Shown here: piece after piece, positions 24,790 to 43,672 of the stretch
Numbering within the stretch: position 1 is the stretch's first letter
How the letters are laid out: the number at the start of each line of letters is the position of its first letter
Source: an uncultured delta proteobacterium
GTDB taxonomy: Bacteria > Desulfobacterota > Desulfomonilia > Desulfomonilales > Desulfomonilaceae
DNA length: 64,000 nt
Reading direction: 5' to 3'
Assembly (NCBI GenBank): GCA_963741625.1
Contig: CAVUIT010000001.1
Coordinates: forward strand, 93,711 to 157,710
Notes under the pieces: generated by a model
What the model saw: only the letters and a program-made list of their open reading frames with translations
Database searches by the model: none
Told to the model about the DNA's origin: nothing
Translations under genes and position numbers: made by a program

Positions 24790-24879
24790 ATTGATAAAAA
24801 CGGGTTTACTCGAAGACGGAAGCAGCGTATTATCTGGAAGCAAAACCCTAGGGCGGGTTTACCTGTAAACCGTCTAAAC
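24790..24879 (+). repeat. R2 repeat, copy 1
   Basis: ATTGATAAAAA..GTTTACyCGAAGACGGAAGCAGCGTATTATCTGGAAGCAAAAC...GGGTTTA..AAACC.TCTAAAC, shared with 40689-40777. Confidence 0.7.
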
Positions 24880-24903
24880 GGAAGTTGGATTGCATAGGTG
24901 AGG

Positions 24904-26134: not shown

Positions 26135-26173
26135 TCAAATGCAATCTAACTAGCCGCTGCGTAATGCGCAGCG

Positions 26174-26405
26174 TAATCGGGGCAGATAATACACAATCTT
26201 TTGTTGACGCTTCAGGCGCTTCTTCTCACCACTGTTTTATAGTTTGTAGCTCGATCAAGTTGGTCCCCAGCTATCTCCACCAGGGCACGCAGCGTGGTGC
26301 TCAGTTGATGGGACTTATTTCATTCCGCGGGACCTCAACATTGAACACCGGGAAATCCACCGGAAGCCGCTGCCGCAAAAAAACGGTATTATGTCCCTCG
26401 AAATC
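26174..26405 (+). repeat. R1 repeat copy A (most diverged left end)
   Basis: Aligns end to end with copy D. Left TAATCGGGGCAGATAAT, right GGTATTATGTCCCTCGAAATC. Confidence 0.9.
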
Positions 26406-26461
26406 TCAAAGCTATTTATGGACTCAAGCAACCCTAGGCGGTTGCGGGTTCGCTCTGATCT

Positions 26462-27169
26462 CTACTGGGGCAACTGCCAGAATGGCCCAGTCTTTCCGAT
26501 TTCCTCAAGGGTGGCCGGTACCTCATGGAAGTACTCGCTGCTGCGGGCTAACCAATCGTCGTCAAGACGCCTGCGAAAGAATTTCCCTGAGAAAAGTCGG
26601 AGCACGTCCTTGAGAGGGATAATTCCTTCAGCGGTCGCGGAATCAAATTGAGACCAATTCCTTACATGCTCTTCCGACCGGAAGAGATTCATTGTGCTTC
26701 AGGTGTGCGCCCAGTCTTCCATCCATTTCCGCAACGGGACTGAAACATAACCCACTATTTCCTCCGGTTCGATTTTCACGAAATCCCCATCAGACACTTC
26801 CACAGACACTGGATCGCCGCAATCTAAACACACACTATCAATTCGGATGGTCTTGCCCGGAAACAGCCAGCAAACTGCCAGCGATTCAAATCCTCATTGA
26901 CCAAACCATTTTTGCTTGCCATCAATGGTGATCCTATACTGAGTCGGAACATTACTGAAGGGCGCAAAGGAAGCTATCAGACTCGTATTGGGGTAGAGCC
27001 AACAACCAGGAATCTTTAGGTCGATCAGTTCATGGAGTCTTTGTCGGCCTTCGTCCGGTGATACTCCCAAGTCCTTCGCGATGTCCGTGTAATGGGGTGC
27101 GTGACCAGTGTCTATCAGCCCCCTCATAATGATTTGGAACGTCTTACCAAGCTGTGCTGGATCAGCCAT
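26462..27169 (-). CDS. Alkylmercury-lyase (MerB)-family protein, candidate selenoprotein with Sec at codons 92 and 157
   Basis: ORFs 26894..27169 and 26462..26692 are in the same frame. The intervening 201 nt is open except TGA 26894-26896 and TGA 26699-26701. Motifs WFGQ-U-GFES and HT-U-STMNLFRSEEHVRNW. Confidence 0.7.
26669..26686 (-). promoter_or_regulatory. SECIS-like hairpin downstream of the second UGA
   Basis: CUCUUCC-GGUC-GGAAGAG: perfect 7-bp stem, GGUC loop, starts 13 nt after the UGA. Confidence 0.6.
26852..26874 (-). promoter_or_regulatory. Weaker SECIS-like hairpin downstream of the first UGA
   Basis: UUUGCUGG-CUGUUU-CCGGGCAAG: 8 pairs including 2 G-U and one bulged G, 20-42 nt after the UGA. 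Confidence 0.35.
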
Positions 27170-27234
27170 AAGTCACCCCCCAATTCATTTGATTCGGCGG
27201 AACTGCCTTTGGGTATCATTATACCGTCGGGAAC

Positions 27235-27260
27235 TCTCGGGAGACTATACTTAATTCTCA
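27235..27260 (-). repeat. Solo R1-family end (subfamily 2), abutting copy B
   Basis: Reverse complement TGAGAATTAAGTATAGTCTCCCGAGA resembles AATAAGTATGGTGTCCCCAGA. Confidence 0.45.
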
Positions 27261-27270
27261 CTGGTGTACG

Positions 27271-27501
27271 TAATCGGGGGACATAATGCCAATAATGTGT
27301 TGACCTGTCAGGTGCTTTTTCTTACCACTGCCTTATCGTTTGTAGCTCGAGCAGATTGGTCCCCAGCTATCTCGACCATGGCACGCAGCGTGGTGTTCGG
27401 TCGATAGGACCTATTTTCATTCGCGGGACCTGAACACTGAACACCGGGAAATCCACTGGAAGCCGCTGCCGCAAAAAAACGGTATTATGTCCCCCGAAAT
27501 C
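27271..27501 (+). repeat. R1 repeat copy B
   Basis: About 94% identical to copy D. TIRs TAATCGGGGGACATAATGCC / GGTATTATGTCCCCCGAAATC. Confidence 0.9.
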
Positions 27502-27653
27502 TCAACTTCTGATCGCCTCAAAGAACGAAGAGGCAATCAATGTAGTGCCAAGGAACCCTCGCGGCTAATGTATCCTACTTATATCTCTTAACTTAATCTT
27601 TCAAACTGTCGAAGATGGGTTTGACACACGCTGACGGAGCGGTGACCTGCCCC

Positions 27654-29433
27654 TCAAGACCCTGATACCGGCTCGTAGGGCCGCTTCATCGTCGGCGGGG
27701 CGAACAGCCTTAAAAATTTCCCAAAGGCAATTGCGCTCCCTGGGTTGTATTCGAAGCCTGCCAGGGCCCTCAGCGGGTTGCGGATTTTGGCCAACATCTC
27801 CTTCCAAGCCCCGGAGTCCGCGGTCACCTTGAGGTCCAGGTTCATGCGCTCCAGGTCTTGGATGGAACGTGGCCGTATTTCCGCCACGCCGTGTCGCACG
27901 TGAATGGTGAAAGCTTCTCTGGCGTCGGGAAAGACCATCCCAACTATTTGATTCACCTCGGCAGCGGCCTTGGGATCCAGGTTGACGGCCAACGACTCCA
28001 TGAAGCTCTGCACAGGAATGCGATGGACCGCCTCGGGCGAAGGTTTGGCCGTGGTGCGAGACACGAAGCCGTCTCGGATTTCCAGAGCCTCGCTGAGGTA
28101 ATAGTTTCGGGCATTCGGGTTTTGTTCTTTTTCAGCGAGGGCTGTCAGGGCCCTGATCCGAACGTCTTTGGCTTCCTGGTTTTCGGGGTTGAGTTGAATT
28201 AGGTTGTCGGTGAGCTGCAAGGCCGCTTGATACTGTTTCTCTTCCAAAAGCTCCCGAGCATGCCGGAGCAGTTCCTTTTCTCCTCCCGCCAACCTGGCCA
28301 TGAGCTTGGCTTGCTCCTTGCGGGTCAGAGGCTCGAGGTCGGCCGAATCGCCGTCAAACCAGCCCAGGGTTCCCGTAAACATGGAACGTACCGACCAGGA
28401 GACTTTGCCGTAAAAAGGCTGGAGGTACGGCTCCTCTGCCAGGTGAGGCGGCAGCTTAATGTATTCGGCCATTTCATCCGGAGTCAGGCCCGCGTTGATA
28501 CACCGGATGGATTGATCGTGGACGTATTGAATCGCGTCCCGGTAATTGGTGAGGATTTCCTGGATCTTCTGGGCACCGATGATCGGGCGGGTGTGGCATG
28601 GTACCAGATATTGCGGATTCAGGTCCCGCATCTTGTCCACGCTTTGGTACCAGTGCTTAAGGTTGCGGAAGCTTGTACCTCGGATAGTATAGAGATTGGG
28701 AAAAGCCCAGTAGTAATTGTCTCCGGCGATCAGCGTCTTCTGCTCGGGCAGCCAGACCATGATGTGATCGTCAGTTTCGCCTGGGGCATAGATCAGCTTG
28801 AACTTGACCCCGGCTTCTTCCGCTTCCAGCGTATCGGCAAAGATCTTAGTGGGTCGGACAAAGCCGAGCTTGCTGTCGGGCTTCATTCCGACAAAGGGTC
28901 CAACACCCACGTTGAGCACCTGACCAGGGGCGAGAAAGTTGCCGTAATCCGCGATGACCGTGAACCGATGATAGGTCCGATCTCAGTGAAGAGCCGTTTG
29001 ACTTGATCCTGAGTGGTCTCGTGAGCGTAGACCTCGGGCTTTCCTCCAGCCGTGAAGACCTCCGCGCCGAAGACATGGTCGGGATGAGAATGGGTATAAA
29101 TGATCGCCTTGACCGGTTTGGAGGTAATCTTCCTGAATTCGGCCAGGACTTCGGCTGCTTCTTCCATAGTGGTCATGGTGTCAACGATGATCACCCCGTC
29201 TGGCCTTCGATCATGATGCAATTTGAGATGCCGTAACCGATGGCCACGTAGAGGTTGTCGCCAACCTTTTCCACGCCTTTCCGGAATATCTTGCTATGCT
29301 CCTCCAGGGACTTGTTCGCACCAACCGGGATCGGAGCGTGAGCTTTCTTGACCGAGCGGCCGGCATAGAACCAAACCCCAGCCAGCCCTACCACCACGAT
29401 AACGAGGACGCCGGCGAGAATCATCTTGAGCAT
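27654..29433 (-). pseudogene. Alkyl/aryl-sulfatase (MBL-fold, SdsA1/BDS1-like, SCP2-like C-terminus) with N-terminal TM anchor; two frameshifts (~29205 and ~28900-28960)
   Basis: Three consecutive ORFs (29191..29577, 28883..29221, 27654..28919) read MLKMILAGVLV... / IYTHSHPDHVFG / APGETDDHIMVWLP... in order. Confidence 0.75.
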
Positions 29434-29663
29434 GAACGGACTCCCTGCAACTTGATTGGGGAGACCGGTAATACCGCGGTGGCAAAACCGGGTCAAGCAT
29501 CGACAAAGCCTCAAACTCAAAGTAGTTGCCAAGACGTCTTTCCATTCCAAGTGGCTGAAACAATACATCCTATCCAACTTCCCGCCTGTATACCAAGCCC
29601 CAGGAATGTTGCCGCACTCCGGCAGTCTTACTTAGGAAGATGGTTCGGTCGGTCGTCCAGGCT

Positions 29664-29894
29664 TAATCGGGGGACATAACACCAATATTGTGTTGACGTG
29701 TCAGGTGCTTTTTCTTACCACTGCTTTATCGTTTGTAGCTCCAGCAGGTTGGTCCCCAGCTATCTCTACCCGGCACGCAGCGTGGTTTTCAGTCGATGGG
29801 ACCTATTTTCATTCGGCGGGACATGAACATTGAACACCGGGAAATCCACCGGAAGCCGCTGCCGCAAAAAAATGGTATTATGTCCCCAGAAATC
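29664..29894 (+). repeat. R1 repeat copy C
   Basis: Full-length alignment to copy D. Central palindrome TGAC-gt-GTCA. Confidence 0.9.
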
Positions 29895-30513
29895 GTAATA
29901 GAGATCCACTTACCCTTAAATATATTTTTCTGATTCTGAGCTGATATGATGATGCGAGTAATCCAGGCCGGGCAGACGTTCGTGAACCCCCCGCACTTTC
30001 CTCATCGGCACATTGTTAGAGGCGGTCAAAATTGATCTGGCTAAGCCTGAGGGACACTTAGAGAGAGCACTTGGTAGCTCGGGTTCCATGCAGTAGCTCA
30101 CAGTGCGGGAAACATCTGGCAGCCGCAGTTGTCAAACTGAATAGAGAGGTGGAGCCACGAAAACGTACCGATTTGTTACTGCGACACATCGTGGTGTTTT
30201 TGATGAAACTCTTCAGGAGGCTATCGAGGCTTTCAATGAGATGAAGCAAGAAGGGCTTTCGCCGTAAATTCGACATGGTTAGCTCGCGAGTACTTTCCGG
30301 CCTAAATTGGGGCTCAAATTCGAGCAGTGGCGCGTGACGCATTATATTTTGGCTCCGCTCATCATTGTGTTCGCGTATTGATTCATTCCCTGGAAACCTT
30401 CCGTGTGTGTCACTTCCAGAGTGCAACCGATCATCTCATCGATTTGTACGAAATGTTCAGCGGATTGATTCCGGAGGGTTCCATTTACAACCCAATCTCA
30501 ACGGAAGGTCAAA

Positions 30514-30774
30514 ATGCCGATTTATGAATACCAGTGCGAGAGGTGTGGTAGCGGATTTGAGAAATGGCAGAAATTCTCAGACCCGGTAGCTGACAAATGC
30601 CCGACATGCGGAGGAAAATCGCGGAGATTGATCTCGCAGTCTACGTTCGTGCTCAAGGGAACCGGGTGGTACGTTACGGATTACGGAAGAAAAGACAGTA
30701 GTTCTTCTAGACAGACCCCGCCCAAGAAAGAATCTTCCTCAGAGACCAAGACCTCGAGCTCGGATGCCGGATAG
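30514..30774 (+). CDS. FmdB-family zinc-ribbon protein
   Basis: MPIYEYQCERCG...CPTCGG two CxxC pairs. SD GGAAGG before the ATG. Confidence 0.8.
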   Translation: MPIYEYQCERCGSGFEKWQKFSDPVADKCPTCGGKSRRLISQSTFVLKGTGWYVTDYGRKDSSSSRQTPPKKESSSETKTSSSDAG

Positions 30775-31333
30775 AGGTCAAGGACGAAAAGGGAGAATAC
30801 GTCTGAGTAGGTCGCCTTCTGCGGGCCGAATATCGGGCCACCAACACGCATGCGGAGATTCGTCTGTCAGCGTAAATCGTTGAGGGGAGGGGTCCGACGA
30901 GTCTGTGATCAAGAGCACCGTTAGAATGGATGATCTAAGCTGCTTGATTGGAGGCGAGATCGTTCCACTTCGAAGGGGGTTGATCATTTTCCAATGGTGC
31001 CACGCGGCAGTTTTATTAGGCTTCGAAGGAACGCAGCGCGAGTATGGGATACCGGTTTATTCCTCATCTAGCACTCTGAGAACCCGTTGGAGCAACTCCT
31101 TGAACCTTAAGGGCAATCTGTTTTCCCTTTTTAGTGTGAAGTCAGGATTTAGAGGGGAGTTTCGGCTCCTCATTGGCCATTGACCATCGTTGAGCCGGGA
31201 TTGAACACTGAATTTACAGGATACGACCAGTCGCGATAGGTGAGGATTGGGTTTGCTTCAAGCCTTGTGAATAGTTCGCGATAACGGTTGCCCGGCACTT
31301 ACGTCATATTTCAGATGTCCTTAGATACATTCA

Positions 31334-32566
31334 TCAAAATTCAAGTGGCAGCTCAACCGGTCGTCCAGTGGCCACGGATTGCCGAGCCAATTCGTAGGCC
31401 TCGTTGTATTGATTGGCCACCAATTCCCATGAAACTACCTCGTCCAGATATTTCTTGAGGTTTTCGCCCAGGCGCAGTCGGAGCTGTTCGTCACAAGCCA
31501 TCGTGACTACGTGGTCCCTCAACATAGCCTTGTTGGTGAACAGCAACCCGCCTCCACTTTCCAGCGTTTGAGCCGTCAGTCCCTCCATTGGGGCTGTGGT
31601 TATATATGGTTTGTTGAGCGCAATAATCCGGTCAAGTGTTCCGGATTGGGTCTCGTCGGTAGAGGGCAGGACTATGAAATCACAAATGGCCATAACCTTG
31701 TAAACTATTTCTCCACGTGGAACGAACTCAAAGTAATGGGCAAGCCCTTTCCCTTCCAGCACCTTCAATTGCTCGCGGTAGTGATAGTAGTCTGGGAGAT
31801 GGTTAGGATCTCTCATAGTTCCCGCGGCCAAAAGGTCCCAGTTTTGTCCGGTCCTATCAAGGATTTCGGCATGAATGTCTTCCCACATGGAAGTCAGGAT
31901 ATCCCATCGCTTGTTTGACTGTATCCATCCGACCATGCCCACAAGGTGTTCGCCGAGGAATGGGACCTTGTCCAAGCCCAGCTCTTCCTTGAGCGCTGGC
32001 ACATCCTCCATTCCCCAGCGCCTATCAGGCCTGGCGCCTTCAGGCACAACCATGACGTTCCTCGGCGTTCGCCAGCCTTCCCCGACGAAAATCCAGTCCA
32101 AGCGCCATTTCTGATAATGGCACTTGAGTAGTACTACCCTTGCTCGTTCGCACATCTTGTAGACGAAATCCGCCTCAAAATCCGTCAGCCTACCATGCAC
32201 GGTATGGGGCTCAACAATAGTAGGAAATTCATTGATTGCGTCGAGCAGATCCAGGAACCCTTCGTTTCCGTCTCCATGTCCCCTTGAGTCATAGTGCTCG
32301 TACAGACCATATTCGTGTTGCAGATGGACTGCGTACGGGCGCAGTTGATACACTTTTCTCGCAACGGTTTTCCACCAATCCCTCTGGGACATGTCAATAA
32401 TGGGAAATACGCCTTCCCCTTGGCCGTCAGTATGACTTATTACCAATACTTCCCTTTCCGGGTTGGCCTTCTGGACGAATTCTCTTGCTTCCTCAACGAA
32501 AGTCGCGATTCCACACAAACGAGGCGGATAGCTTGAAATCATGACTATGGGGTCTGAATCGCTCAT
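31334..32566 (-). CDS. Glycosyltransferase (GT4-like, GT-B fold)
   Basis: 410-aa intact ORF. N-terminal ISSYPPRLCGIATF, C-terminal E-x7-E-type region. Confidence 0.75.
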   Translation of the reverse strand: MSDSDPIVMISSYPPRLCGIATFVEEAREFVQKANPEREVLVISHTDGQGEGVFPIIDMSQRDWWKTVARKVYQLRPYAVHLQHEYGLYEHYDSRGHGDGNEGFLDLLDAINEFPTIVEPHTVHGRLTDFEADFVYKMCERARVVLLKCHYQKWRLDWIFVGEGWRTPRNVMVVPEGARPDRRWGMEDVPALKEELGLDKVPFLGEHLVGMVGWIQSNKRWDILTSMWEDIHAEILDRTGQNWDLLAAGTMRDPNHLPDYYHYREQLKVLEGKGLAHYFEFVPRGEIVYKVMAICDFIVLPSTDETQSGTLDRIIALNKPYITTAPMEGLTAQTLESGGGLLFTNKAMLRDHVVTMACDEQLRLRLGENLKKYLDEVVSWELVANQYNEAYELARQSVATGRPVELPLEF

Positions 32567-32682
32567 TGAATGTCCTTTTCCCTGTTGTTAGGGCGCTCCG
32601 GTTCCCCCGAATCCATTAGATTCGTGGCCGCGCAGCCCACAAAAATACCTTTGATTCTGTTGGAGGCATTGCATGCCGGCTA

Positions 32683-32772
32683 TTGCTCGTCTAAGACAAT
32701 TCATTACCTTTCCCCGATGGTCACTGCGCCCTAAAAAGCGCCATGCTGATCGTGGAAGGAGCAGGGGTACCC
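32683..32772 (-). repeat. R3 leader element, copy 1 (117-206 nt upstream of the glycosyltransferase start)
   Basis: About 85% identical, apart from one 13-nt indel, to 43528-43627 upstream of the radical SAM gene. Confidence 0.7.
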
Positions 32773-33249
32773 CGGTGACTCTCTAAACCTAAGCGATACG
32801 ATCATGCGTTGTGACAATCTGATCAGCTCTATATCGCTTGCACTTGAGGCGAAGTCATTTCACGAGCTGCGATGAGAATACCCTCACCGGTTAGCAAGCT
32901 ACGTTCATTTCTCTCGGAGGTGAGGAGTTTGAAGTTCTGGGTATAGTAGTGAAGAGGACCCAACAAGTTCGCGAGGGTAATAAAAGCCAAGGATTGCCAA
33001 CTCAGGAAGACCTGGCGTCGAACCTCTGTCCAAAATAACTCGAGCAGAATTGATAAGTGATGTGAGATTTACCATTTAGTGAGCTCCTTTCAATCTTCAC
33101 TATAAGTTTGACATCCGACTTAAGCCAGAGTTCCCAGGTGGGCAAGGATTTCTTGGAGGTCACCGATTCTGTGGGGAAAGCAGATCTGTCTAAGGTACTG
33201 AGTCACGCGGACGTACAGAGACAGACGTCGCGTATGGAGCCTTGCAGCG

Positions 33250-33481
33250 TAATCGGGGGACATAACACCAATATTGTGTTGACATGTCAGGTGCTTTTTC
33301 TTACCACTGCTTTATCGTTTGTAGCTCGAGCAGGTTGGTCCCCGGCTATCTCCACCATGGCACGCAGCGTGGTGTTCAGTCGATGGGACCTATTTTCATT
33401 CCGCGGGACATGAACATTGAACACCGGGAAATCCACTGGAAGCCGCTGCCGCAAAAAAACGGTATTATGTCCCCCGAAATT
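33250..33481 (+). repeat. R1 repeat copy D (used here as reference)
   Basis: TAATCGGGGGACATAACACC...GGTATTATGTCCCCCGAAATT. Internal 8-bp helix GGTGTTCA...TGAACACC. Confidence 0.9.
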
Positions 33482-33498
33482 TTTCGGGAGAGGCGTGC

Positions 33499-34238
33499 AT
33501 GGCGATGTGGCGAAGAGACACGTTGAGATCGAGGTTTTTGCGATCCCTCATCCCTGAAAGAATACCCTGGTTTGCTGCCCGCCTATACGACCAAATTGCC
33601 CGCAGCGCAATCGAGACCTACTACAAGGGAGTGGCCGAGCTTGTCACGGCCCACCAAGTCAAGGATTGGTCTTGGATATTGGTACCGGTCCGGGATATCT
33701 CCCCATTGAGATCGCCAAGAGGGCACCCCGGATCACAGTAGTTGGAATCGACTCGTCAAAAGCACTGGTGCGGATAGCTCAAAAAAATGCGAAGAGGGAG
33801 GGCCTGTCGGATCGAGTCCGATTCGTGAAATGCGATGGCAACAGGCTCGACTTTGCAGATGATTCATACGACCTGGTGATCAGCACGGGTTCCCTCCATG
33901 CGTGGAAAAATCCGGTGCTAGTAATCAACGAATGCTTCAGGGTCCTGAAAGCTGGGTGTGAAGCCTGGTTATTGGATCCGGCACAGATCATCACCCCGGA
34001 GGCTCAGCAGCTCCTGGGGAGAGGCCTCAATGCGGTGGACAGGCTTGCTAACTGGTGGGGCTCTTTCACTTCCAAGCTCACGCCACCCTACACTGTAAGG
34101 GAGGTTGAGGAGATTATCCGCCGGACAAATTTTAAGAAAGGGACCGTTGCGGAAGGAAAATGGCTTACCGTCAAGCTGAAAAAGCATGCCAGTCCGGCAA
34201 CCGAAGCTCATCAGCGACCTCATCGTAATCAACGTTGA
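33499..34238 (+). CDS. Class I SAM-dependent methyltransferase, one frameshift (~33665)
   Basis: ORF 33499..33741 joins ORF 33666..34238 at motif I VLDIGTGPGYL. The stop TGA overlaps the first bases of R1-E. Confidence 0.75.
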
Positions 34239-34467
34239 ATCGGGGACATAACACCAATATTGTGTTGACACGTCAGGTGCCTTTTCTTACCACTGCTTTA
34301 TCGTTTGTAGCTCGAGCAGGTTGGTCCCCAGCTATCTCCACCATGGCACGCAGCGTGGTGTTCAGTCGATGGGACTTATTTTCGTTCGCGGGACATGAAC
34401 ATTGAACACCGGGAAATCCGACTGGAAGCCGCTGCCGCAAAGAACTGCTATTTGGTCCCCCGAAATC
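34237..34467 (+). repeat. R1 repeat copy E
   Basis: Full length. Right end diverged (GCTATTTGGTCCCCCGAAATC). Confidence 0.9.
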
Positions 34468-34483
34468 GACAGCCCCGGCTCAC

Positions 34484-34513
34484 CAAGATAAGTATGGTGT
34501 CCCCGGAATTACG
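34484..34513 (+). repeat. Extra subfamily-2 right end directly after copy E
   Basis: CAAGATAAGTATGGTGTCCCCGGAATTACG, near-identical to 23524-23552. Confidence 0.6.
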
Positions 34514-34667
34514 CTCTTTTGAACTGTATCCTATCCTTCCATCCGTACCACCACCAAAGAAGAAATCTGTGTTTGATTGGTTCGCTCGTTATTAAGGCAA
34601 ATCTCCCGGACCTTGGAGTCTGCTGCCCGCATCGGCTCGGGTATAAATGTCGGAATATCGAAAGCGG

Positions 34668-35420
34668 TCAGAAATACCGAATTCCTTTGCTGTGATACCC
34701 CTGCGGGTTTATGGTCAGGTAGTGAATTTGACCGCCAATCCCAGGAAGCAGGTTGCTCAGACGATAAATCTCTGCAACCGTTTTGATCTGGAAGATTAGA
34801 TAGCTGGCACGATCTTCGAGGTCTTGAGAATGGGGGATTAAGACTCCTATCGGGCGCAAGTGGGTAAATACACTTTCTAAAGAAGCAAAAATCTCTGCAT
34901 GAAAGCGAATGTCCCCGTTGCGAATTAAATATGCCGGATTCTGCACAAAAATGTCCGGCGGTACGTTGTGATTGGCATTGAAACGAGTAGCATCAACGTA
35001 GATACCGCGAGATTCCAGAGTCCGGCAGAAACCATCATGTATGTGGTAAAAAGAGGGAGTCGGCGTTCCATTAAAGTCGTCAAAACCTGCCAAATGAAAG
35101 CCTAAGCACCTGTTGCCCCTTGGGGGCGAGGGAATCCTGTCGTTCAACTGACTAGCCAACTCGCCTGCGAAGTCATGCAAATTATCAATCCCCTGATTGG
35201 ACGCAATGAATGCGGATAGCCATTGATCGGTCGGGGTATTTTCAATTTCCCCTTCTCCCCAGCAAGAAATTCCAGCATTGAGGTACGGCACTTGTTGCAG
35301 TTTGCGGGCCACGCCAGGAACAATTTGAGCCAAGCCAGTGCGGGTATTAATTACCTTTACCGCGGAATCGGCAGCCATTGCGATTCCGAAACTAGTCAAC
35401 TCTGTAAGAATTAATGTCAT
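34668..35420 (-). CDS. Hypothetical protein, possibly Ntn-hydrolase/proteasome-beta-like
   Basis: 250-aa intact ORF. N-terminus MTLILTE..FGIAMAADSA resembles the T1 nucleophile pattern. The assignment is weak. Confidence 0.5.
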   Translation of the reverse strand: MTLILTELTSFGIAMAADSAVKVINTRTGLAQIVPGVARKLQQVPYLNAGISCWGEGEIENTPTDQWLSAFIASNQGIDNLHDFAGELASQLNDRIPSPPRGNRCLGFHLAGFDDFNGTPTPSFYHIHDGFCRTLESRGIYVDATRFNANHNVPPDIFVQNPAYLIRNGDIRFHAEIFASLESVFTHLRPIGVLIPHSQDLEDRASYLIFQIKTVAEIYRLSNLLPGIGGQIHYLTINPQGYHSKGIRYF

Positions 35421-35628
35421 ATTTGTTCGTCTCCTTCAGAGATGATTTGGTATTATAGAGCAACTCACTGGATCTAAAAAGAAATTTAGCGATATAACGA
35501 GTCGGAATTATGGATCCCAAGAGCAAAAAATGTAAGAGACCCTGCCCTTCCAACGACGATGCCGTCATAAATCTCATAAGCGATGTCATAACTATTGCCA
35601 CGACCACAGATAAACAAATAAGCAACAT
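35392..35628 (-). CDS. Small membrane protein (hypothetical)
   Basis: 78 aa, hydrophobic N-terminus, in an AT-rich segment. Overlaps the downstream ORF start by 29 nt. Confidence 0.3.
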   Translation of the reverse strand: MLLICLSVVVAIVMTSLMRFMTASSLEGQGLLHFLLLGSIIPTRYIAKFLFRSSELLYNTKSSLKETNKYDINSYRVD

Positions 35629-35827
35629 ATAATAAGACTCAAACTTACTCTTCCGATAGAATACTTAGCGGAAAAAATAACTTCATCTTGCGCCGCATCT
35701 ATTGGAGCATTTTGGATCACGATCATTCCTCCTAAAGTAAGCGCGAATTGTGTGCCACATATTAACCTGAATTATGCGGCGACCAACCCGCCCATCAGTA
35801 GGCTTCACTGTCGCCTTCAGCCGAGGC

Positions 35828-36403
35828 CTACGTCTTTCCATAGTATCGTTTTGCTTCTTCCATCACTCTGACGACAAACTCCGTCTTCCCCTCAGTGTAG
35901 GCCAAGCGATCATGGGGGTACGTTGCTGCAAGCCGATTTTTTAGCTGGCTGTACTCCTCGGCCACGTCGGGATGCTCGATGAGGTAGTCTCTGAAAAGCA
36001 GCCTATCCCAGTGCTCGAAATGGCTTTCAATCATGTGAATATGGTGAGTGCGGTTACCCCTTGAATCCCGCTTGATGAACCATGCGTAGAATGGAGGAAT
36101 ATTGCCTGCCCAAGTGGGTCTCCAGAAATACTCATACCCCTGGGACTCAAGGATTGGGACTATCCTTCTTTTGGTCTCCTGCAGGTCGGTGACTTCCACC
36201 AGCATGTCGATAATGGGCTTGGCCGCCAGGCCCGGCACAGCGGTGCTTCCGAAATGCTCGATCCTTCCTATCAGCTCACCAGGGAGGCAGGATAGGAGGT
36301 GTTCTTTCTCCTGGCGGAACATGGAGGGCCATCGAGGATCATAGGGCACGACGGCAACATATTCCTGCACTGCTGTCTGTATTCGCTCCTCAAGTAACTC
36401 CAT
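35828..36403 (-). CDS. GrpB-family (UPF0157) protein
   Basis: VVPYDPRWPSMF, IEHFGSTAVPGLAAKPIIDM, HHIHM motifs. The longer track ORF borrows its ATG from R1-F. Confidence 0.8.
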   Translation of the reverse strand: MELLEERIQTAVQEYVAVVPYDPRWPSMFRQEKEHLLSCLPGELIGRIEHFGSTAVPGLAAKPIIDMLVEVTDLQETKRRIVPILESQGYEYFWRPTWAGNIPPFYAWFIKRDSRGNRTHHIHMIESHFEHWDRLLFRDYLIEHPDVAEEYSQLKNRLAATYPHDRLAYTEGKTEFVVRVMEEAKRYYGKT

Positions 36404-36449
36404 TTCGAGCCTTCCTTTTGACCCGATCATACTTATTGGAAGGTGTGCG

Positions 36450-36681
36450 TGATCGGGGGACATGATACCAATATCGTGTTGACATGTCAGGTGCTTTTTT
36501 TTACCACTGCTTTATCGTTTGCAGAGCAAACTGGTTGGTCCCCGGCTATCTCCACCCTGGCACGCAGCGTAGTGTTCAGTTGATGAGACTTATTTTTCTT
36601 TGGCGGGACCGGAACATTGTACGCCGGGAAATCCACTGGAAGCCGCTGCCGCAAAAAAACCGTATTATGTCCTCCAAAATC
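36450..36681 (+). repeat. R1 repeat copy F
   Basis: Full length, about 87% identical to D. Preceded by an ATACTTATTGG solo-end fragment (36420-36439). Confidence 0.9.
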
Positions 36682-37039
36682 CCCAAGAAATTTGGCGACC
36701 CAGGCCCTGGGCCTTTTCGCCCTCTACTGTATCTATAGTACGCACTTTCAACTCAACTCTTGTCCGCGCTTATAATGGCTTTCAGAGCCACAAATAGCCT
36801 GATAGCACGGCTCAGGGGCCATCCGAAACTGCCTGTCCGAAGTAGTCCTCCGACACGTCGGGGAAGTAGATTTGGAGTCTAATCGTCCCAGCGCGGGTCC
36901 TGTTGCAAACGTTTCAACCTCTTTCGGCCACAGAACCTTTTGACTTAGAGACCTTGCAGAGATAATCTGAATAATGGAAGTGGTTTATTTTTCTATTCTG
37001 CAAATTTGTGACGACGCAGTGTCTCACGGGGGAAGTGCC

Positions 37040-40000
37040 ATGCAGGACGAAGATGTAATTCGCAAGGAATTGCTGGCGGAATTGGAGGTCCTGCGCCGAA
37101 GGATTGCAGAATTTGAGGTCCAGGAAGCACGGACCAGGCGCTGGGTGGAATTGGTCCAGCGAGTCAATGCCTTGAAAGAAGATCTGCTGACTCATGGGAG
37201 CTTGGACGAAAAGCTCAAGCGCATAACGGATGGGTTGGTGGAAATCTTCGGCGCAGACTTTGCTCGCATCTGGATAACGAAGCCGGGAGATCGCTGTGAT
37301 TCGGATTGCGTTCACGCTAAGGTAACAGAAGGGTCTCATGTCTGCCGCCAGCGGAATCGCTGCCTTCACCTCATGGCAAGTTCAGGCCGCTACACCCACA
37401 TTGACGGTAAGTTGCACCGACGAGTCCCTTTCGATTGTTACAAGATTGGCCGCATAGCCTCGGGCGCTGAACCCAAATTCCTCACGAATGATGTCGCTAA
37501 CGATCTGAGTATTCACGATCAGGGCTGGGCGAGAGAATTGGGTTTGGTTTCAGTTTCGCGGGATACCGCCTTTTGTCAGCGGATGCGAAGCCCATCGGCG
37601 TGATGGCCCTGTTCTCTAAGTGTGCCTTTTCCTCCGATGAAGCGGCGATGCTTGAAGGTCTGGCGAATACCTCTTCTCAGGTGGTCCAGGCAGCGATGGT
37701 GGATGAAGCTCGGAGGGAAAGCGAAAACCGCTACAGTAGGCTTGTCGAGAGCACGGACACTGGATTCGTCGAGTTAGACGCCTCAGGACGAGTCGTTCAA
37801 GCGAACGATCCATACTGCGCGTATGGCTGGAGCCTCAAGAACCGAAGAGCTAATCGGCCGTTCCGTTCCCGATTGGACTGCCCCTGAATGTATCGCAGAA
37901 AACGATGCTGCCGTTCAGCTATGCTTAAAACAAGGGCACATTTCCGATTTCGAGACCACCTATTTGAGGGCTGATGGATCGAGGGCGAGAATTCTTATAA
38001 ACGCTACCACAGAAGACAGTCCAGAGGGTCGGAAGATAGTGACCCTGTGCAGAAATATCACCGAGCGCAAGAAGGCCGAGGAGGCGGCAGATCGAGCCAA
38101 CCAGGAATGGGAACGAACGTTCAATGCCATTTCAGACCTCGTTATGGTTCTGGACGATCAACACAAGATTCTCCGGGCAAACAAGGCTATGGCTGATGCT
38201 CTTGGGATGACGGAGCAGGCGTTGATAGGAAGACTCTGCTTTGAACTTGTGCATGGAGAAAAAGAACCCCCCGTTTTTTGTCCCCACTCTCAGCTTCTTA
38301 CCGACGGTGAAGAACATTCAGCGGAAGTGGTGGAACCTCGTCTCGGAGGGATATATGACGTTCGAGTTTCTCCGCTGGTCGGTCAAAATGGTCAGGTCAT
38401 AGGTTCGGTTCATGTCACTCGCGACATCACCGAGCGCAAACTGGCCGGAGAACGACTTCTGTTGTTGAACTTTGCCCTGGACCATGTGCGGGACGCGGCC
38501 TATCTCATCGACGAGAACTCACGTTTCCTCTATGTCAACGATGAGGCATGCCGGGCGCTGAGCTACAATCGCGAGGAACTCCTCGGAGGCATGAGCGTGC
38601 TTGATATCGGTCCCGGCTGGACTGAGGAGCGCTGGACAGGACACTGGCATGAGCTGAAAGCGAGTGGCTCGCTGACCTTCGAGGCTTTCCACAAAGCAAG
38701 GGATGGACATGTTTTTCCGGTGGAGATCACCGCCAACATATTCCACTATCATGGGGCCGACTACAACGTTGCCCTGGCCCGGGATATTACCGAGCGCAAA
38801 CTGACCGAGAGAGAATTGCAGAGGTCTAACGACCTGCTCCGGGCCATCATTGAGGCCGCACCGACGGCGATCATCGGTCTGGATCTGGACGGAAATGTGC
38901 GAACGGTGTGGAATCCTGCGGCTGAGAAGATGCTTGGCTGGAGCGCGGACGAGGCCATGGGCCGCCCGCTCCCGAGCGTGCCTGTGGAAAGTCAGGAGGA
39001 GTTCAGGGGCTTTCGAGAACGGATACGCAGTGGTAAGACCCTCGATGGCGTGGAAGTCAGACGACAGAAGCGCGACGGGACACCTATCGATTACAGCATC
39101 TATGCCTCGCCCCTGCATGACACCGAGGGCCGCATCACCGGCAACATTTGCGTGCTGGTGGACATCACTGAACGCAAGCAGGCCGAACAGGAAAAGGAGA
39201 AGTTGCAGGCGCAACTTCTTCAGGCCCAGAAGATGGAAGCCATCGGAACTCTTGCAGGCGGTATTGCCCACGATTTTAACAATCTTCTTCAGGTAGTCCT
39301 TGGCTACTCCGATATACTGCTCTTCGACAAGAAGCCTTCAGACCCTGATTACGAGAGACTTCATGCCATACGACAGGCCGGTAGGCATGGCAGTGAATTG
39401 GCAAACAGGATTCTTGCCTTCAGCAGAAGGTTGGAGCCCAACGCCCACCCAGTAAACCTGAACAATGAAATAAGACGCGTCCAAAAGATGCTTGAGCGGA
39501 CGGTTCCCAAGATGATTCGAATTGAAATCCTCTTGGCCGATAACCTCATGACCGTCAATGCAGATCCGGGCCAGATGGAACAGATACTTCTAAACCTTGC
39601 GGTAAATGCTCAACATGCAATGCCCGACGGAGGGCGACTGACCATTGAGACGGCAAACGTAACTTTGGATGAGGACTATTCACGAACCCATCTTGATGCG
39701 GAACCCGGGAAATATGTCCTGCTTACGGTCTCCGACACGGGCCACGGGATGGACAAGGAAGTGGTGGAGCACATCTTCGAGCCGTTCTACATGACCAAGG
39801 GACCCGGCGAGGGAACCGGGCTCGGACTTGCAATGGTGTTCGGTATAGTTAAGAGTCATAAAGGTCACATCAGCTGTTACAGCGAACCCGGCAGTGGAAC
39901 CACGTTCAGGATTTATCTCCCGGCCATTGTCCAAGAGATTGAACAGGATGTTCCTGTTACCCAGCAGATGCCTGCTTTTGGAACTGAAACCATTCTGCTT

Positions 40001-40375
40001 GTGGATGACGAGAAATCCATTCGCAAGCTCGGGGAACAGATGCTCAGAATGGCAGGATACAGAGTATTGACGGCAACCAACGGAAGAGAGGCTCTCGAAG
40101 TTTATCGTTCCAACCAAGCCAAAATAGCCCTTGTGCTTCTGGATCTGATGATGCCGGAGATGGGTGGCAAGCAGTGCCTGGAGGAACTTCTCAAGATCAA
40201 TCCGAGAGTTAAAGTGGTAATTGCCAGCGGGTACTCGCCCAATGGACCGACCAAGGAAGCGCTTACCTCGGGGGCAAAGGGATTTGTCAACAAACCATAC
40301 GATATAAGGCAGGTTCTGGAGGTCGTCCGCGCAGTCCTTGATGAAGAACAAGGGAGGCCGCAGGTGTCTGATTGA
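37040..40375 (+). CDS. GAF-multiPAS hybrid sensor histidine kinase with C-terminal receiver; two frameshifts (~37570, ~37825)
   Basis: ORFs 36974..37603 (GAF), 37573..37887 and 37823..40375 follow on. H-box GGIAHDFNNLLQVV, HATPase GLGLAMV, REC LLVDDE...DLMMPEMGG. Confidence 0.8.
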
Positions 40376-40452
40376 TGGCTTACATCCGAAACCGGCCTTC
40401 TAAAACCGGCCTGGCCCCCCAAAACTGGTCCAGATTCTGAGTTAGGATTGAG

Positions 40453-40681
40453 TGATCGGGGGACACAATACCAATATTGTGCTGAGGGGAAGTGCTTTTT
40501 CTTACCACTCCTTTATCGTTTGTAGCTCGAGCAGGTTGATCCACAGCTATCTCTACATGGCACGCAGCGTGGGGTTCAGTCGATGGGACCTGTTTGCATT
40601 CGGCGGGATCTGAACTTTGAACTCCGGGAAATCCATTGGAAGCCGCCGTCGCAAGAGACCGGTATTATGCACCCAGAAATC
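40453..40681 (+). repeat. R1 repeat copy G (central palindrome replaced)
   Basis: Full length, about 80-85% identical to D. Confidence 0.85.
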
Positions 40682-40688
40682 ACAACCT

Positions 40689-40777
40689 ATTGATAAAAAA
40701 AGTTTACCCGAAGACGGAAGCAGCGTATTATCTGGAAGCAAAACGCGAAAGCGGGTTTATGTGGAAACCATCTAAAC
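40689..40777 (+). repeat. R2 repeat, copy 2
   Basis: See 24790-24879. It again sits between an R1-family right end and a gene for a TM protein. Confidence 0.7.
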
Positions 40778-40814
40778 AGCACTTCGACAAGAAGGCAGAT
40801 ATGACGAGAGATCG

Positions 40815-41044
40815 ATGAAGCATTCTGGTTTCCCGCCAAACGGTATGGATGGGGGTGGGGTCCACCCAAGCGTTGGCAGGGATGGCTTGTTCTGATGTTG
40901 TATTTCCTTTTAATCGCGTTGTGTGCAGCATTCTTCCTGCGGCACGACCGGGTCGTCGCATTTCTCTCCTGCACCGCAATTCTGACGGCTGCACTCTTGT
41001 TGGTGTGTTGGATCAAGGGCGAGAGGCCTCAGTGGCGTTGGTGA
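40815..41044 (+). CDS. Small two-TM membrane protein (KRYGWGWGPPKRWQGW motif), start displaced by a frameshift (~40835)
   Basis: Frame 3 reads AKRYGWGWGPPKRWQGWLVLMLYFLLIALCAAFFL...WIKGERPQWRW*. The only ATG (40815) is in another frame. Confidence 0.45.
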
Positions 41045-41172
41045 GTCAAATAGAATCGTCGAACAAGCCATTGCAGCCGATCGCGCGAGGAACGCGCTCC
41101 GGCTGAACGGCGGCGTTAGGATGCGGAGGCCTTATAGATTGCGAACTGAGCATCATAGAGGAGAACACGACA

Positions 41173-41331
41173 GTGAAATCCAGATGTGCAAGATGTAGGT
41201 TTAGGAACTATGCGGAGCGAAAGCCAAATTCACTAATTGCCCGGATTTGGCGATGGCACACCGGGTGGTGTCCGGGCTGGAAAGCCTACCAAAGAGAATT
41301 GGCTGAGAAAGCAAACGCTAAGACATCCTAA
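41173..41331 (+). CDS. Small Cys-rich protein (CxxC ... WCPGW)
   Basis: 52 codons from GTG: VKSRCARCRFRNYAERKPNSLIARIWRWHTGWCPGWKAYQRELAEKANAKTS*. Below the ORF-track size cutoff. Confidence 0.4.
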   Translation: MKSRCARCRFRNYAERKPNSLIARIWRWHTGWCPGWKAYQRELAEKANAKTS

Positions 41332-41436
41332 CCACTCAATGCAGCGGATGAGGCAGGCCGCTCCGCTGATCTCGGCCGTTCGCATTTCCGCGAAATCTGT
41401 TTAAGCTGAAGTTCTGCAAGAGAAAGGAGATAAGGA

Positions 41437-41937
41437 ATGAGACACACAAGTCTGGTGGTGGCGGCAGTCGCTGTAGTCGCGCTTCTGGCTCATGCTTCGG
41501 CACAGGCACAGGAGTTGAAGAAACTCAATCTCGACGACGCTTCGGTGATTGGACTCACAATCCAGACCGATGAGCAGGTCAAGACTGAAGGCAAAGCATC
41601 CATCAAGATCACGACGGCCTGGCCGACTATAGTATGCTTGAGCGAAGTCGCTGGACTGGATGTCGAGGAAGCCAAGCTCGTGTACAAGGCGAAGGTGAAA
41701 ACTGAACTCGAAGGCGATGCTTTCCTCGAGATGTGGGTTCAGGTCGGTGGCGGCCAGTTCTTCTCCAAAGGAATGAACGACCCTGTCAAGGGCAAGTCAG
41801 ACTGGAAAACGATCCAGACTCCATTCATGTTCCAGAAGGGCCAGAAACCCGATAAGGTCACACTCAACATCGTGATCAATGGCAAGGGGACCGTCTGGGT
41901 TGACGACATTGTTCTGTCCAAGGAGGCGCTGAAATAG
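41437..41937 (+). CDS. Secreted protein of unknown function
   Basis: 166 aa, signal peptide MRHTSLVVAAVAVVALLAHASAQA, SD GGAGA upstream. Confidence 0.65.
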   Translation: MRHTSLVVAAVAVVALLAHASAQAQELKKLNLDDASVIGLTIQTDEQVKTEGKASIKITTAWPTIVCLSEVAGLDVEEAKLVYKAKVKTELEGDAFLEMWVQVGGGQFFSKGMNDPVKGKSDWKTIQTPFMFQKGQKPDKVTLNIVINGKGTVWVDDIVLSKEALK

Positions 41938-42035
41938 GATTGCAGAACCAGAGAGTCCACTATACGCCGGGCCTGCGGCTGGCTCGCCGCCAGTGACTCC
42001 CAACAGGCCCAACCAGACGCTTCGTAAGCCGGGCG

Positions 42036-42114
42036 TAATCCGGGGGCATAATACTGATATTGTGTTGACGCGTCAGGTGCTTCTTCTTACCACTGCTTTA
42101 TCGTTTGTAGCTCG
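42036..42114 (+). repeat. R1 repeat copy H: 5' 79-bp fragment only
   Basis: TAATCCGGGGGCATAATACTGATATTGTGTTGACGCGTCAGGTGCTTCTTCTTACCACTGCTTTATCGTTTGTAGCTCG, then homology stops. Confidence 0.85.
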
Positions 42115-43392
42115 GACGGGTGTCTGCAAGGCCTTTTTCCGGTAACTGAGATTCACGGCGACCCGATACGGAATCCCCCGCCAGCTGCGGAACACCCGCT
42201 TCAGAATGTTGGGAAGGGTGTACGTCTGCCGGAAAATCCAATTATAACCCTCCTGCAGTTCTTCGACAGTCATATTGACAGGCTGAAATACAACCTCACT
42301 TGTGTGATACTTTGACCAATCTCGTTCCAGAATGCGTTGATCCTTCTCCATTCTGTCGTATAAGCGTGTCCCGGGGAACGGTGTGAGGATATGATACTGG
42401 GCAACGGCAATCCGATTTTTCATGACAAAATCAAGGGTGTGCTGAAAAACGGAAGGATCGTCATTATCCAGGCCGAATATAAAGCTCCCGATAACATTGA
42501 TACCCGCACGATGAATTTTGCTGATGGCTTCTTCGTAATCTTCGGCCTTACTCCATGGTTTGTTGATGCCCTTGAGATTATTCTGGGAAAGGCTCTCAAG
42601 ACCGATAAAGGCATATCGCCCGCCGCTTTTTGCATACAGCCGAAGGAGTTCATCGTCCTTGGCAAAAGTAATGGAGGTCTGCCCGCCCCATTTCTTTTTC
42701 AGGGGGATCAAACCGCTGAACAGCTCCTTCGCATAATCGGGCTGCCCGCAAATGTTATCATCGGCAAATAAAAAGTGCCCTGAGTCGAATGTGCGGATTT
42801 CATCCAGCACCTCTGCTACGGGCCGCGTTCGGAACTTACGTCCGAATACACCTGTGACGGCGCAGTAATCACAATTGTAAGGACAGCCCCTTGTGGCCTG
42901 AATTGTGTAATAATTCGTATACATGGCCTTGTTGAGCAGCTCCAGTCGGGGAATTTTCATCTTTGCCATCGTGCACAGCGTGTCTGAGTGATAGGTGGTT
43001 TGCATTGATCCTGATTCAAAATCGATTAATAGCTGTTTCCATATCTCCTCGGCCTCCCCGATCACGACTGCGTCGGCATGTTTGAGGGCCTCCTCCGGCA
43101 TCGCGCTGACATGGACACCCCCCAAAACCACGGGAATACCTCTTTTCCTGAATTCATCAGCTATGGCATAGGTACTGGGAATCTCCGCCGTATAGCCGGT
43201 GATGCCTACCAGATCAACCTTCTGTTCGTAATCTAACGGAGCCACACGAGCATCATGAATGGCGACATTCCAACCCGGCGGCGTGAGCGCTGCCACTGTC
43301 GGCAACCCCAAGGCCACAATGCCCGCTTTCCCGTGCCGGACCTTTCCCCAATAACCACCTTCACTTTTGGGAAACACCAAGAGCAACTTCAT
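42073..43392 (-). CDS. B12-binding-domain radical SAM protein (class B)
   Basis: CPYNCDYC radical SAM motif, N-terminal cobalamin-binding fold. The last 14 codons (ATNDKAVVRRST*) are encoded by R1-H. Confidence 0.85.
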   Translation of the reverse strand: MKLLLVFPKSEGGYWGKVRHGKAGIVALGLPTVAALTPPGWNVAIHDARVAPLDYEQKVDLVGITGYTAEIPSTYAIADEFRKRGIPVVLGGVHVSAMPEEALKHADAVVIGEAEEIWKQLLIDFESGSMQTTYHSDTLCTMAKMKIPRLELLNKAMYTNYYTIQATRGCPYNCDYCAVTGVFGRKFRTRPVAEVLDEIRTFDSGHFLFADDNICGQPDYAKELFSGLIPLKKKWGGQTSITFAKDDELLRLYAKSGGRYAFIGLESLSQNNLKGINKPWSKAEDYEEAISKIHRAGINVIGSFIFGLDNDDPSVFQHTLDFVMKNRIAVAQYHILTPFPGTRLYDRMEKDQRILERDWSKYHTSEVVFQPVNMTVEELQEGYNWIFRQTYTLPNILKRVFRSWRGIPYRVAVNLSYRKKALQTPVRATNDKAVVRRST

Positions 43393-43527
43393 AAAATCAT
43401 TATCTCCTCTAAGGACTAGCTAAAGCCTGGCGGACAACCGCTGGAGGAGTGCAAGAGGTCTTGGCTGCGCTTTCCAGATACCGGTGCCGCGAGACTCATG
43501 AACCATCTTAGCACAGGAAGCGGGCTT

Positions 43528-43627
43528 TTGCTCGTCTAAGAAGATTCACTGCCATTCCCCGATGTACTGCGCCCCAAAAAGCGACCTGAATAGCGCCCTG
43601 CTGATCGTGGAAGGAACCGGCGTACCC
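43528..43627 (-). repeat. R3 leader element, copy 2 (136-235 nt upstream of the radical SAM start)
   Basis: TTGCTCGTCTAAGA..ATTCA..CC.TTCCCCGATG..ACTGCGCCC.AAAAAGCG...CTGATCGTGGAAGGA shared with 32683-32772. Confidence 0.7.
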
Positions 43628-43633: not shown

Positions 43634-43672
43634 CTGAATTCTGAATTCTGGGGATACCCTACTTAATTCTCA
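43634..43672 (-). repeat. Solo R1-family end (subfamily 2), opposite orientation to 23524-23552
   Basis: Reverse complement TGAGAATTAAGTAGGGTATCCCCAGAATTCAGAATTCAG. Confidence 0.55.

Follow-up and report, generated by a model that had tools for sequence, protein, structure and literature searches.

The stretch of Desulfomonilaceae DNA analysed here, 64 kb in full length and referred to below as the window (W), contains a hypervariable island situated between a TetR/fatty-acid operon (the TetR/acyl-CoA dehydrogenase flank) and corA, and within this island a non-coding repeat of about 231 bp, R1, recurs between gene modules. Using repeat finding, MAFFT and BLAST, we recovered seven full copies of R1, located at 26174–26405 (R1-A, diverged, with 23 changes from the consensus), 27271–27501 (R1-B), 29664–29894 (R1-C), 33250–33481 (R1-D, near-consensus, with 4 changes), 34237–34467 (R1-E, with a degenerate right end), 36450–36681 (R1-F) and 40453–40681 (R1-G), and a 79-bp 5′ fragment at 42036–42114 (R1-H, positions 1–79; R1 position numbers are coordinates within the element). 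All of them lie on the plus strand, and their identity to R1-D ranges from 86 to 95%. These copies, with these coordinates and this orientation, had been described by an earlier sequence-only reading of the window. BLAST revealed no other R1 match in the 64 kb at E < 0.1, and a 20-base pattern internal to R1 had 7 matches in the window against 0 in 100 shuffles. The gaps between consecutive copies measure 755–3771 bp, in agreement with the module sizes of 0.76–3.8 kb previously given, and the copies are spaced 985–4003 bp apart on one strand.

To describe the modules, we refer to two metagenome-assembled genomes (MAGs) labelled ‘delta proteobacterium’, A (MFD09730.bin.3.152, also represented by L040 and L090) and B (MFD05942.bin.3.322, represented by L091), and to further related loci or contigs that carry L-numbers, among which L090–L092 reach corA. 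R1-A and R1-B enclose a fragmented minus-strand gene (26406–27270) that is present in A, B, L068 and L092 at 91–94% identity; its ‘MerB-like’ label, which we retain as a name, comes from the sequence-only reading and finds no support in Pfam. Next to it, an alkyl sulfatase module (27502–29663, minus strand) is split into three open reading frame (ORF) pieces that match the metallo-β-lactamase, dimerisation and C-terminal domains in Pfam. The module between R1-C and R1-D (29895–33249) encodes a Zn-ribbon protein and a group-1 glycosyltransferase (Pfam) and is 96–98% identical in A, B, L069 and L092; the element before it is R1(1–68) in A, B and L073, and a full R1 plus 113 bp in W. It is followed by a plus-strand S-adenosylmethionine (SAM) methyltransferase module (33482–34236, Pfam), in two ORF pieces, whose ribosome-binding site lies 18 bp after R1-D and whose ORF continues two bases into R1-E, to position 34238. 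The minus-strand module at 34508–36449 consists of a gene for a 250-aa protein of unknown family and a GrpB gene (Pfam), and is 95.6–98.8% identical in A, B and L092; the ‘Ntn-like’ label once proposed for this module likewise has no Pfam match behind it. A 209-aa ORF and a hybrid kinase with PAS, histidine kinase and receiver domains (Pfam) occupy 36682–40452 on the plus strand and are absent from B and L092. The last interval, 40682–42035 (plus strand), contains a leader-like repeat (D5), small membrane-protein ORFs and a gene for a 166-aa secreted protein; it includes a degenerate GAAATC box at 41379–41398, and the stretch 41392–42004 alone comes after an R1 in L068 and A.

Several genes begin 20–80 bp from an R1 end, and two gene ends are in direct contact with the repeat, as had been noticed before. 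One is the methyltransferase ORF just mentioned; the other belongs to the B12-binding radical SAM gene (42073–43392, minus strand, Pfam), whose stop (42073–42075) lies inside R1-H, the last 14 codons of the gene being R1 read on the minus strand. The same fusion of R1-H to the 3′ end of the radical-SAM gene is found in A, B, L068 and L092. The claim that R1 sits between modules holds insofar as its copies bound units that vary in presence and order among relatives; there are also module junctions that have no R1, for example at 41392 and 30008. Pfam scans of all large ORFs detected no recombinase or transposase in the window, in line with the sequence-only reading, and no tRNA or tmRNA attachment site is present in it.

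The inverted ends of R1 span 17 nt with 94% complementarity and can be extended to 26 nt at 81%. Outside them, conserved boxes, GYGTRATC on the left and GAAATC (or GAATTC) on the right, belong to the repeat itself; the terminal inverted repeats of about 18 bp and the conserved flanks reported previously are therefore confirmed. Alignments of 24–40 copies, depending on the test, showed that no ORF is kept across copies, and a coding role for the small ORFs inside R1 was discarded on reading the alignment, as their start codons are lost in some copies. Copies are 85–99% identical to the consensus, are frequently truncated, and are nearest to the consensus rather than to one another, resulting in a star-like phylogeny; the youngest copy, L010, lies outside the main array and is one change from the consensus. 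When R1 was folded, only its 17–21 bp ends paired and the interior of about 190 nt was not palindromic (z = −1.9 and −2.4). RNAalifold on 24 copies gave no covariation (2 of 43 predicted pairs compensatory; covariation term +0.56), and its consensus fold left even the ends unpaired. No Rfam family matched R1 at the gathering threshold or at E ≤ 1, the best being mir-1000 (E = 1.3, 15.5 bits). In 20 of 40 copies the left end carries, on the minus strand, a sigma-70-like promoter directed outwards (−35 CTGACA, 17 nt, −10 TATTAT), against a chance expectation of 0.0005 per strand, and a GG-N10-GC motif occurs in 19 of 40. This promoter may matter for genes located to the left of R1; the array is not explained by it. 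At R1 positions 198 and 168, some copies carry nested insertions of 190–270 bp with many perfect GC palindromes (A, L040 7232–7420; L066 3706–3895; B, L091 reverse complement 13642–13906), and thus other small elements appear to target R1.

R1 is the longest of at least three non-coding families that share the termini GAAWTC-N-GGGGACA, the other two being R2, of about 155 bp, and hairpin sites of about 70 bp; across the families, the ends are conserved and the sites measure between 65 and about 500 bp. A complete R2 (L038 1573–1733) has a terminal stem of 28 bp. The short site at 24648–24721 (plus strand, 74 bp), with the same ends as R1 and R2 (GATTCCGGGGACAC...GTGTCCCCAGAATTC), forms a near-complete hairpin of −19 kcal/mol, with z = −5.8 on the plus strand and −6.3 on the minus strand. 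Folding the single strand, a check suggested by the sequence-only reading, thus gave a mixed outcome, a strong hairpin for the short site and a weak fold for R1. Additional relatives of R1 were found by motif scan as a solo R2-type right end of repeat family D6 (AAGTATGGTGTCCCCAGATTAC, 23505–23548, plus strand) and as an R2-type right end of the same family directly 3′ of R1-E (34484–34507, plus strand); a further one is the R2 fragment (positions 6–97) at 43644–43734 (plus strand), which is the last array element in the window. Because of these siblings, the region punctuated by repeats extends over approximately 23.4–43.7 kb, instead of the 26.2–42.1 kb originally proposed. The added segment on the left includes a nucleotidyltransferase/HEPN-type toxin–antitoxin module (23549–24647, plus strand, split ORFs), whose orthologues in L073 and L076 match NTP_transf_2/Polbeta, and each toxin–antitoxin module is followed by a short site. 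The homology of W with L073 and L076 stops exactly at the short hairpin site 24648–24721.

The terminal boxes show further regularities. The exact flank junction of genome B is occupied by a lone GCGTAATC box. Right-end box variants stay with the module downstream: AGAATTC accompanies module X in A, B, L073, L076 and L070, and GAAATT accompanies the methyltransferase in W, A and L066. In many independent copies the boxes are tandemly doubled, with two CCCCNGAAWTC units at right ends and two GTAATC units at left ends (window 24704–24745, 26150–26180, 34222–34245 and 42020–42045; L068 3300–3325; L008 425–450; L037 1455–1480); these doublings may be the footprint of recombination or multiple sites for protein binding. 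The junctions also include R1 truncations at positions 68, 79, 135 and 168–170, and unequal hybrids of R2 and R1.

The same island, with different modules in different order, was found in at least eight Desulfomonilaceae assemblies (W, A, B, L073, L074, L076, L068 and L092). Its left flank ends at a TetR operator-like palindrome (TTGATTGATTTGTCAATCAA, 23340–23367): W, A, B, L073, L074 and L076 are collinear up to window position 23367, as illustrated for the first five by the common sequence ...CAATCAATTT, and beyond it each genome is different. On the right, corA forms the border in W, L068, A, B and L092; in the window this gene marks the start of the conserved flank (51800–53015, plus strand), where corA and transglutaminase genes are collinear with L068, A and B. 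Between these borders, the sulfatase comes after the MerB-like gene in W and after the 250-aa gene in A; module X is present in A, B, L073, L076 and L070 and is missing from W; L068 passes directly from MerB to the radical-SAM gene; and the hybrid kinase module of W is replaced in B and L092 by a single R1 in the place of R1-F, module and R1-G. An identical module order in all relatives had been put forward as an argument against cassette mobility; the order differs, so mobility is not refuted.

The degree of identity also varies along the island. Between W and A, modules range from 88.8% (sulfatase) to 98.8% (250-aa gene), and the flank from 88 to 97%. L076 has a flank only 81% identical to that of W, whereas its MNT/HEPN module is 93% and one R1 copy 97% identical; for L073 and L076 together, this module is 92–93% identical to that of W. 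Since modules and repeats are more similar than the flank, we consider that both move between lineages. A complementary case is provided by L088 and L089, which represent the same locus in two genomes: R1 and one toxin–antitoxin block are 85–92% identical within flanks that are 97–100% identical, and the boundary of the replaced block lies within about 20 bp of the R1 end. In a more distant relative, L075 (TetR 77% identical), an island at the same place (1–9700) has neither R1 nor R2; it contains FRG, nucleoside deoxyribosyltransferase-like, MNT and contact-dependent inhibition (CDI) toxin/immunity genes, together with a gene for a phage major capsid. This indicates that the site is a hotspot in its own right. 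The neighbourhood of the PaaY gene was considered as a possible empty site and set aside, since the organism reached was more distant, had no R1 and differed in synteny.

To what extent R1 occurs outside the window was evaluated with several searches. In a scan of one genome per species (185,579 species), R1 was present in only three genomes, A, B and one Desulfomonilaceae MAG, the remaining 50-odd matches being due to chance. Six further R1 contigs came from a metagenome scan, and more assemblies were reached via the neighbouring TetR gene and the cassette proteins. The proteins of the window had no entry in the assembly index. R1 had no match in a plasmid collection, and two scans of viral contigs yielded zero hits in one case and one chance-level match in the other. 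The family is known from two genomic regions only, the TetR–corA island and a second R1/R2 region, seen in B, L089 and L065, that surrounds a CBS/acetyl-CoA synthetase operon adjacent to lptD. Hence, the statement that R1 is found nowhere else is valid for the rest of the window and fails genome-wide, given this second region in a related genome. The common orientation, on the other hand, proved to be general: all 60 R1/R2 elements of at least 60 bp, distributed over 15 contigs, are co-oriented within their contig, and L088–L092 add no exception. Many positions are orthologous and only two regions are known, and for this reason the number of independent seeding events may be small.

Two arrangements allowed us to map where exchange took place within R1. 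In the first, R1-F, the kinase module and R1-G of W correspond to one R1 in B and L092. This single copy has the left markers of R1-F, 2G and 16G (in L092 only), and from position 38 on it has the markers of R1-G, 38G, 92A, 96A, 108T and 110del (in B and L092). Judged from these markers, the arrangement is the product of recombination between two direct R1 copies, with the crossover placed at positions 16–38. The second is L068, which carries MerB, a hybrid R1(1–79) and the radical-SAM gene; the hybrid does not have 49C, a marker carried by all four radical-SAM-type fragments, and this locates the crossover at positions 49–79. A single fixed crossover at positions 18–22, which had been considered from four events, was ruled out by this same hybrid. 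An additional copy, A2, is a mosaic: its left end has 18G, which the post-MerB copy W_B also has, and its right end has 226A and 230T, both pre-X markers. Positional orthologues of R1 share approximately 17–19 derived variants, indicating stable inheritance where no exchange has occurred. The fact that the crossovers fall at different R1 positions indicates homologous recombination rather than an enzyme acting at a fixed site.

The reading that we favour, with about even confidence, is that lineage-specific, hairpin-ended, non-autonomous repeats fill the junctions between modules and, being co-oriented and conserved, provide the portable homology by which modules are deleted, inserted and exchanged between lineages. 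According to this proposal, the elements would be seeded, and occasionally renewed, by an enzyme encoded elsewhere that recognises their ends; recombination between two direct, co-oriented copies then deletes the module between them, as the kinase and L068 cases show; and modules would be gained or exchanged, with all copies still co-directional, when an excised circle reintegrates reciprocally or when the DNA of a different strain enters by a double crossover. Given that R1 is about 90–98% identical across lineages whose core DNA is down to 81% identical, modules could move where flank homology is too weak. The inverted ends, the derivatives with internal deletions and insertions, the sibling families with the same ends and the copies closest to the consensus are all features expected of such elements.

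Several observations weigh against the idea of portable homology. Neither the window nor about 200 kb of related loci yielded a transposase or recombinase that could seed the repeats, and no target-site duplications were found at R1 copies. Homologous recombination cannot explain the ends common to R1, R2 and the 70-bp sites, nor can it account for the tandem duplications of the terminal boxes or for junctions at the short sites, which are too short for RecA and yet lie exactly where homology between genomes stops. The ends of R1 are 1.8 times more variable than its interior (0.11–0.12 versus 0.063 variants per site per copy, chi-square p = 3e-10, uncorrected for shared ancestry), and variable ends are unusual for a transposon, in which the ends are the functional part. 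Finally, the mechanism is drawn from two mappable crossovers with few markers, and some of the assemblies are long-read assemblies with indel errors.

An alternative that we regard as possible, with tentative confidence, is a non-integron site-specific cassette system, in which R1, R2 and the short hairpins would be variable-length attachment sites, folded as single strands and used by a recombinase encoded elsewhere, the mobile unit would be a site plus its adjacent module, and homologous events would be secondary. This would account for sites of variable length with conserved ends, for the strong hairpin of the short site and its presence after each toxin–antitoxin module, and for the universal co-orientation. 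Moreover, the ends common to all families, the end of homology exactly at the short site, the doubled terminal boxes, the isolated GCGTAATC box at the flank junction of B, the right-end variants that travel with the downstream module and the L088/L089 block bounded at an R1 terminus point to some enzymatic action on the ends, if only in seeding and renewal; a near-consensus R1 in lineages with 81% flank identity fits as well. A recombinase is nevertheless missing at or near every array end examined, the two mapped crossovers differ in position (16–38 versus 49–79), many junctions are untidy, with the truncations and R2/R1 hybrids described above, the interior of R1 is non-palindromic and better conserved than the ends, and L075 has a variable island at the same place without the sites. 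Slightly more tentative is the extension of this alternative according to which the three families, lacking an AAC/GTT core, serve as attachment sites for a system of gene capture with an origin separate from that of integrons, a Desulfomonilaceae recombinase, probably acting on single strands, building co-oriented arrays at more than one chromosomal hotspot. Three known types of ends were also compared with those of R1 and rejected: a Xer/dif site, for which there is no second arm; an IS200/IS605-type element, since the R1 ends are inverted repeats of each other and not two local hairpins; and Tn3-type ends with a 5-bp duplication, since the flanks TAATC and GAAAT are not direct repeats.

The possibility that R1 is an ordinary family of miniature inverted-repeat transposable elements, or MITEs, mobilised by a DDE transposase and landed between the genes of an island that is variable for unrelated reasons, seems unlikely to us. 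R1 has the defining traits of a MITE, being short (231 bp), non-coding and provided with 17-nt terminal inverted repeats. It resembles the bacterial MITEs Correia (Correia repeat enclosed elements, CREE), ERIC (enterobacterial repetitive intergenic consensus) and the Tn3-derived inverted-repeat miniature elements (TIMEs) in its size class (150–250 bp), its subfamilies and internal-deletion variants, its star-like set of copies closest to the consensus, and its outward sigma-70-like promoter; outward promoters are common in bacterial MITEs, and MITE-type repeats are known hotspots of homologous recombination (PMC10969869), as R1 would also be. The island is, in addition, variable even in the relative without R1. 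In contrast with a MITE family dispersed in random orientation, all 60 elements are co-oriented, and copies are concentrated in two plasticity regions; the sequences outside the conserved boxes, which are part of the repeat, share nothing at any copy, including the near-consensus L010, so that no target-site duplication is seen; and no autonomous insertion sequence (IS) with R1-type ends (GAAWTCNGGGGACA) was found in about 200 kb of related loci. About as improbable, or slightly more so, is the idea that R1 is an immobile cis-acting element, such as a portable promoter, an insulator or a small RNA, kept by selection beside each module. The higher conservation of the interior, the promoter and the GG-N10-GC motif in about half of the copies and the short distances from R1 ends to gene starts agree with this idea. 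It is opposed by the negative Rfam search, the lack of covariation and the weak fold (z about −2), by neighbouring genes that point either way and offer no consistent regulatory geometry, and by copies that are 85–99% of consensus and often truncated, suggesting weak selection per copy; besides, it leaves the co-orientation and the inverted ends unaccounted for.

That the island is a canonical integron array parted from its integrase (a cluster of attC sites lacking an integron integrase, CALIN), with R1 as an unusually long attC, is in our view very improbable. The AAC/GTT triplet is the best conserved feature of attC, the attC loop has 20–100 nt, and the definition of a CALIN asks for two or more sites that share a strand and are separated by less than 4 kb (PMC4889954). 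With regard to this operational definition, R1 copies are co-oriented, imperfectly palindromic sites spaced 985–4003 bp apart on one strand, and, as in CALINs, no integrase is nearby, toxin–antitoxin cassettes are present, content and order vary among strains at a fixed chromosomal locus, sites of variable length have conserved ends, and the short member forms a clean single-strand hairpin. In contrast, AAC/GTT is not conserved on either strand in the end boxes of the 24–40 aligned copies, and the part of R1 equivalent to the loop is about 190 nt, not palindromic and better conserved than the ends; as the 74-bp site does fold end to end, the family is mixed in this respect. Instead of single promoterless ORFs in one direction, the modules have 1–4 genes in either direction and reach 3.8–6 kb. 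The mapped crossovers do not share one position, the intervals being 16–38 and 49–79 (two events with few markers). No intI or recombinase family was detected in W (Pfam, large ORFs), in the A, B and L092 loci up to corA, or on the TetR side of L073 and L076 (precomputed Pfam labels), and neither intI nor attI stands at the array ends. The sequence-only reading was therefore right in excluding a canonical integron on the basis of the missing integrase, which three TetR-to-corA arrays of related genomes lack as well, the missing core and genes pointing both ways. Its comparison with an integron-style cassette array stands as far as the variation of modules between relatives is concerned; site-specific recombination, the other part of that comparison, is not shown, given the two crossover positions. 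Altogether, the sequence-only interpretation is partly supported, the island being a cassette-like array and neither a canonical integron nor a plain MITE.

Two other known systems have features in common with the island. In the minimal mobile elements and intergenic mosaic elements of Neisseria, conserved flanking genes enclose strain-specific cassettes, with small repeats at the junctions, and exchange takes place by homologous recombination. Fixed flanks, strain-specific modules, junction repeats and homologous exchange would all be shared with our case; here, however, the R1 repeats themselves, and not only the flanking genes, would supply the homology, and the co-oriented arrays are long. 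The pdif modules of Acinetobacter plasmids, recombined by XerC/XerD, are gene modules, including toxin–antitoxin pairs, bounded by short inverted sites, and the two ends of R1 would alternate in orientation as C/D and D/C sites do. Unlike pdif, the ends of R1 and R2 do not contain an 11-6-11 Xer-type site; read by eye, the XerC arm matches at 8 of 11 positions and the XerD arm is unrecognisable.

Other observations were made on the island and its surroundings. Inside the array, L073 (reverse complement 12795–12850) and L076 (reverse complement, approximately 4049–4105) have another, diverged copy of the 55-bp TetR-operator palindrome region (window 23316–23370), 2.1 kb from the flank copy in both, and W looks like a deletion product between two such copies. 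In genome A only, a gene for a HerA/DUF87-type ATPase (L090 6600–8096) is located at the corA end of the array. In L037 (2006–5398), a class A penicillin-binding protein ORF with an N-terminal ISL3-type Zn-ribbon and helix-turn-helix lies between R1 and R2 copies, and may be a true fusion or an artefact of ORF calling; this ISL3 region next to R1 was rejected as a transposase as it has no catalytic domain. The same deficiency led us to discard a weak IS1595 match in the window (25357–25863, E = 0.004).

Many genes of the window are split (19994–21152, 22697–23257, 26406–27270, 27654–29577 and 33499–34238), among them those for the sulfatase, the methyltransferase, an acyl-CoA dehydrogenase and TetR, the last with 186 rather than 208 aa. 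These are probably indel errors of long-read assembly together with some true pseudogenes, since the MerB-like gene is also split in the Illumina contig L068. The repeat D5, of 93 nt, occurs at 24797–24889 and 40695–40787 (83% identical), just 3′ of the hairpin site or of R1-G and 5′ of small membrane-protein ORFs; its 3′ part is also found after R1 in L068 (3322–3352), no Rfam family matches it, and it may be a regulatory RNA or a shared leader. Upstream of the minus-strand glycosyltransferase and radical-SAM genes, the regions 32666–32772 and 43511–43627 have two blocks in common at 80–85% identity, pointing to a shared promoter or leader, or to duplication of a module backbone. Lastly, a near-perfect 18-bp palindrome (43929–43966, 89% complementary, 2-nt spacer) immediately before a DUF4331 gene is probably an operator or a terminator.

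The locus constitutes a well-defined natural experiment, with at least eight public assemblies that hold the same island in different states. Integron finders based on attC would miss arrays of this kind, because their sites do not have the attC core. If a dedicated recombinase exists, these arrays would represent a second, independent system of cassette capture. If instead the repeats act as portable homology, a small repeat would give ordinary homologous recombination an integron-like power, by which modules could disappear, come back and spread among lineages that are too divergent in their core DNA for recombination, and this would be a simple, possibly widespread route of accessory-gene turnover in uncultured soil and sediment bacteria.

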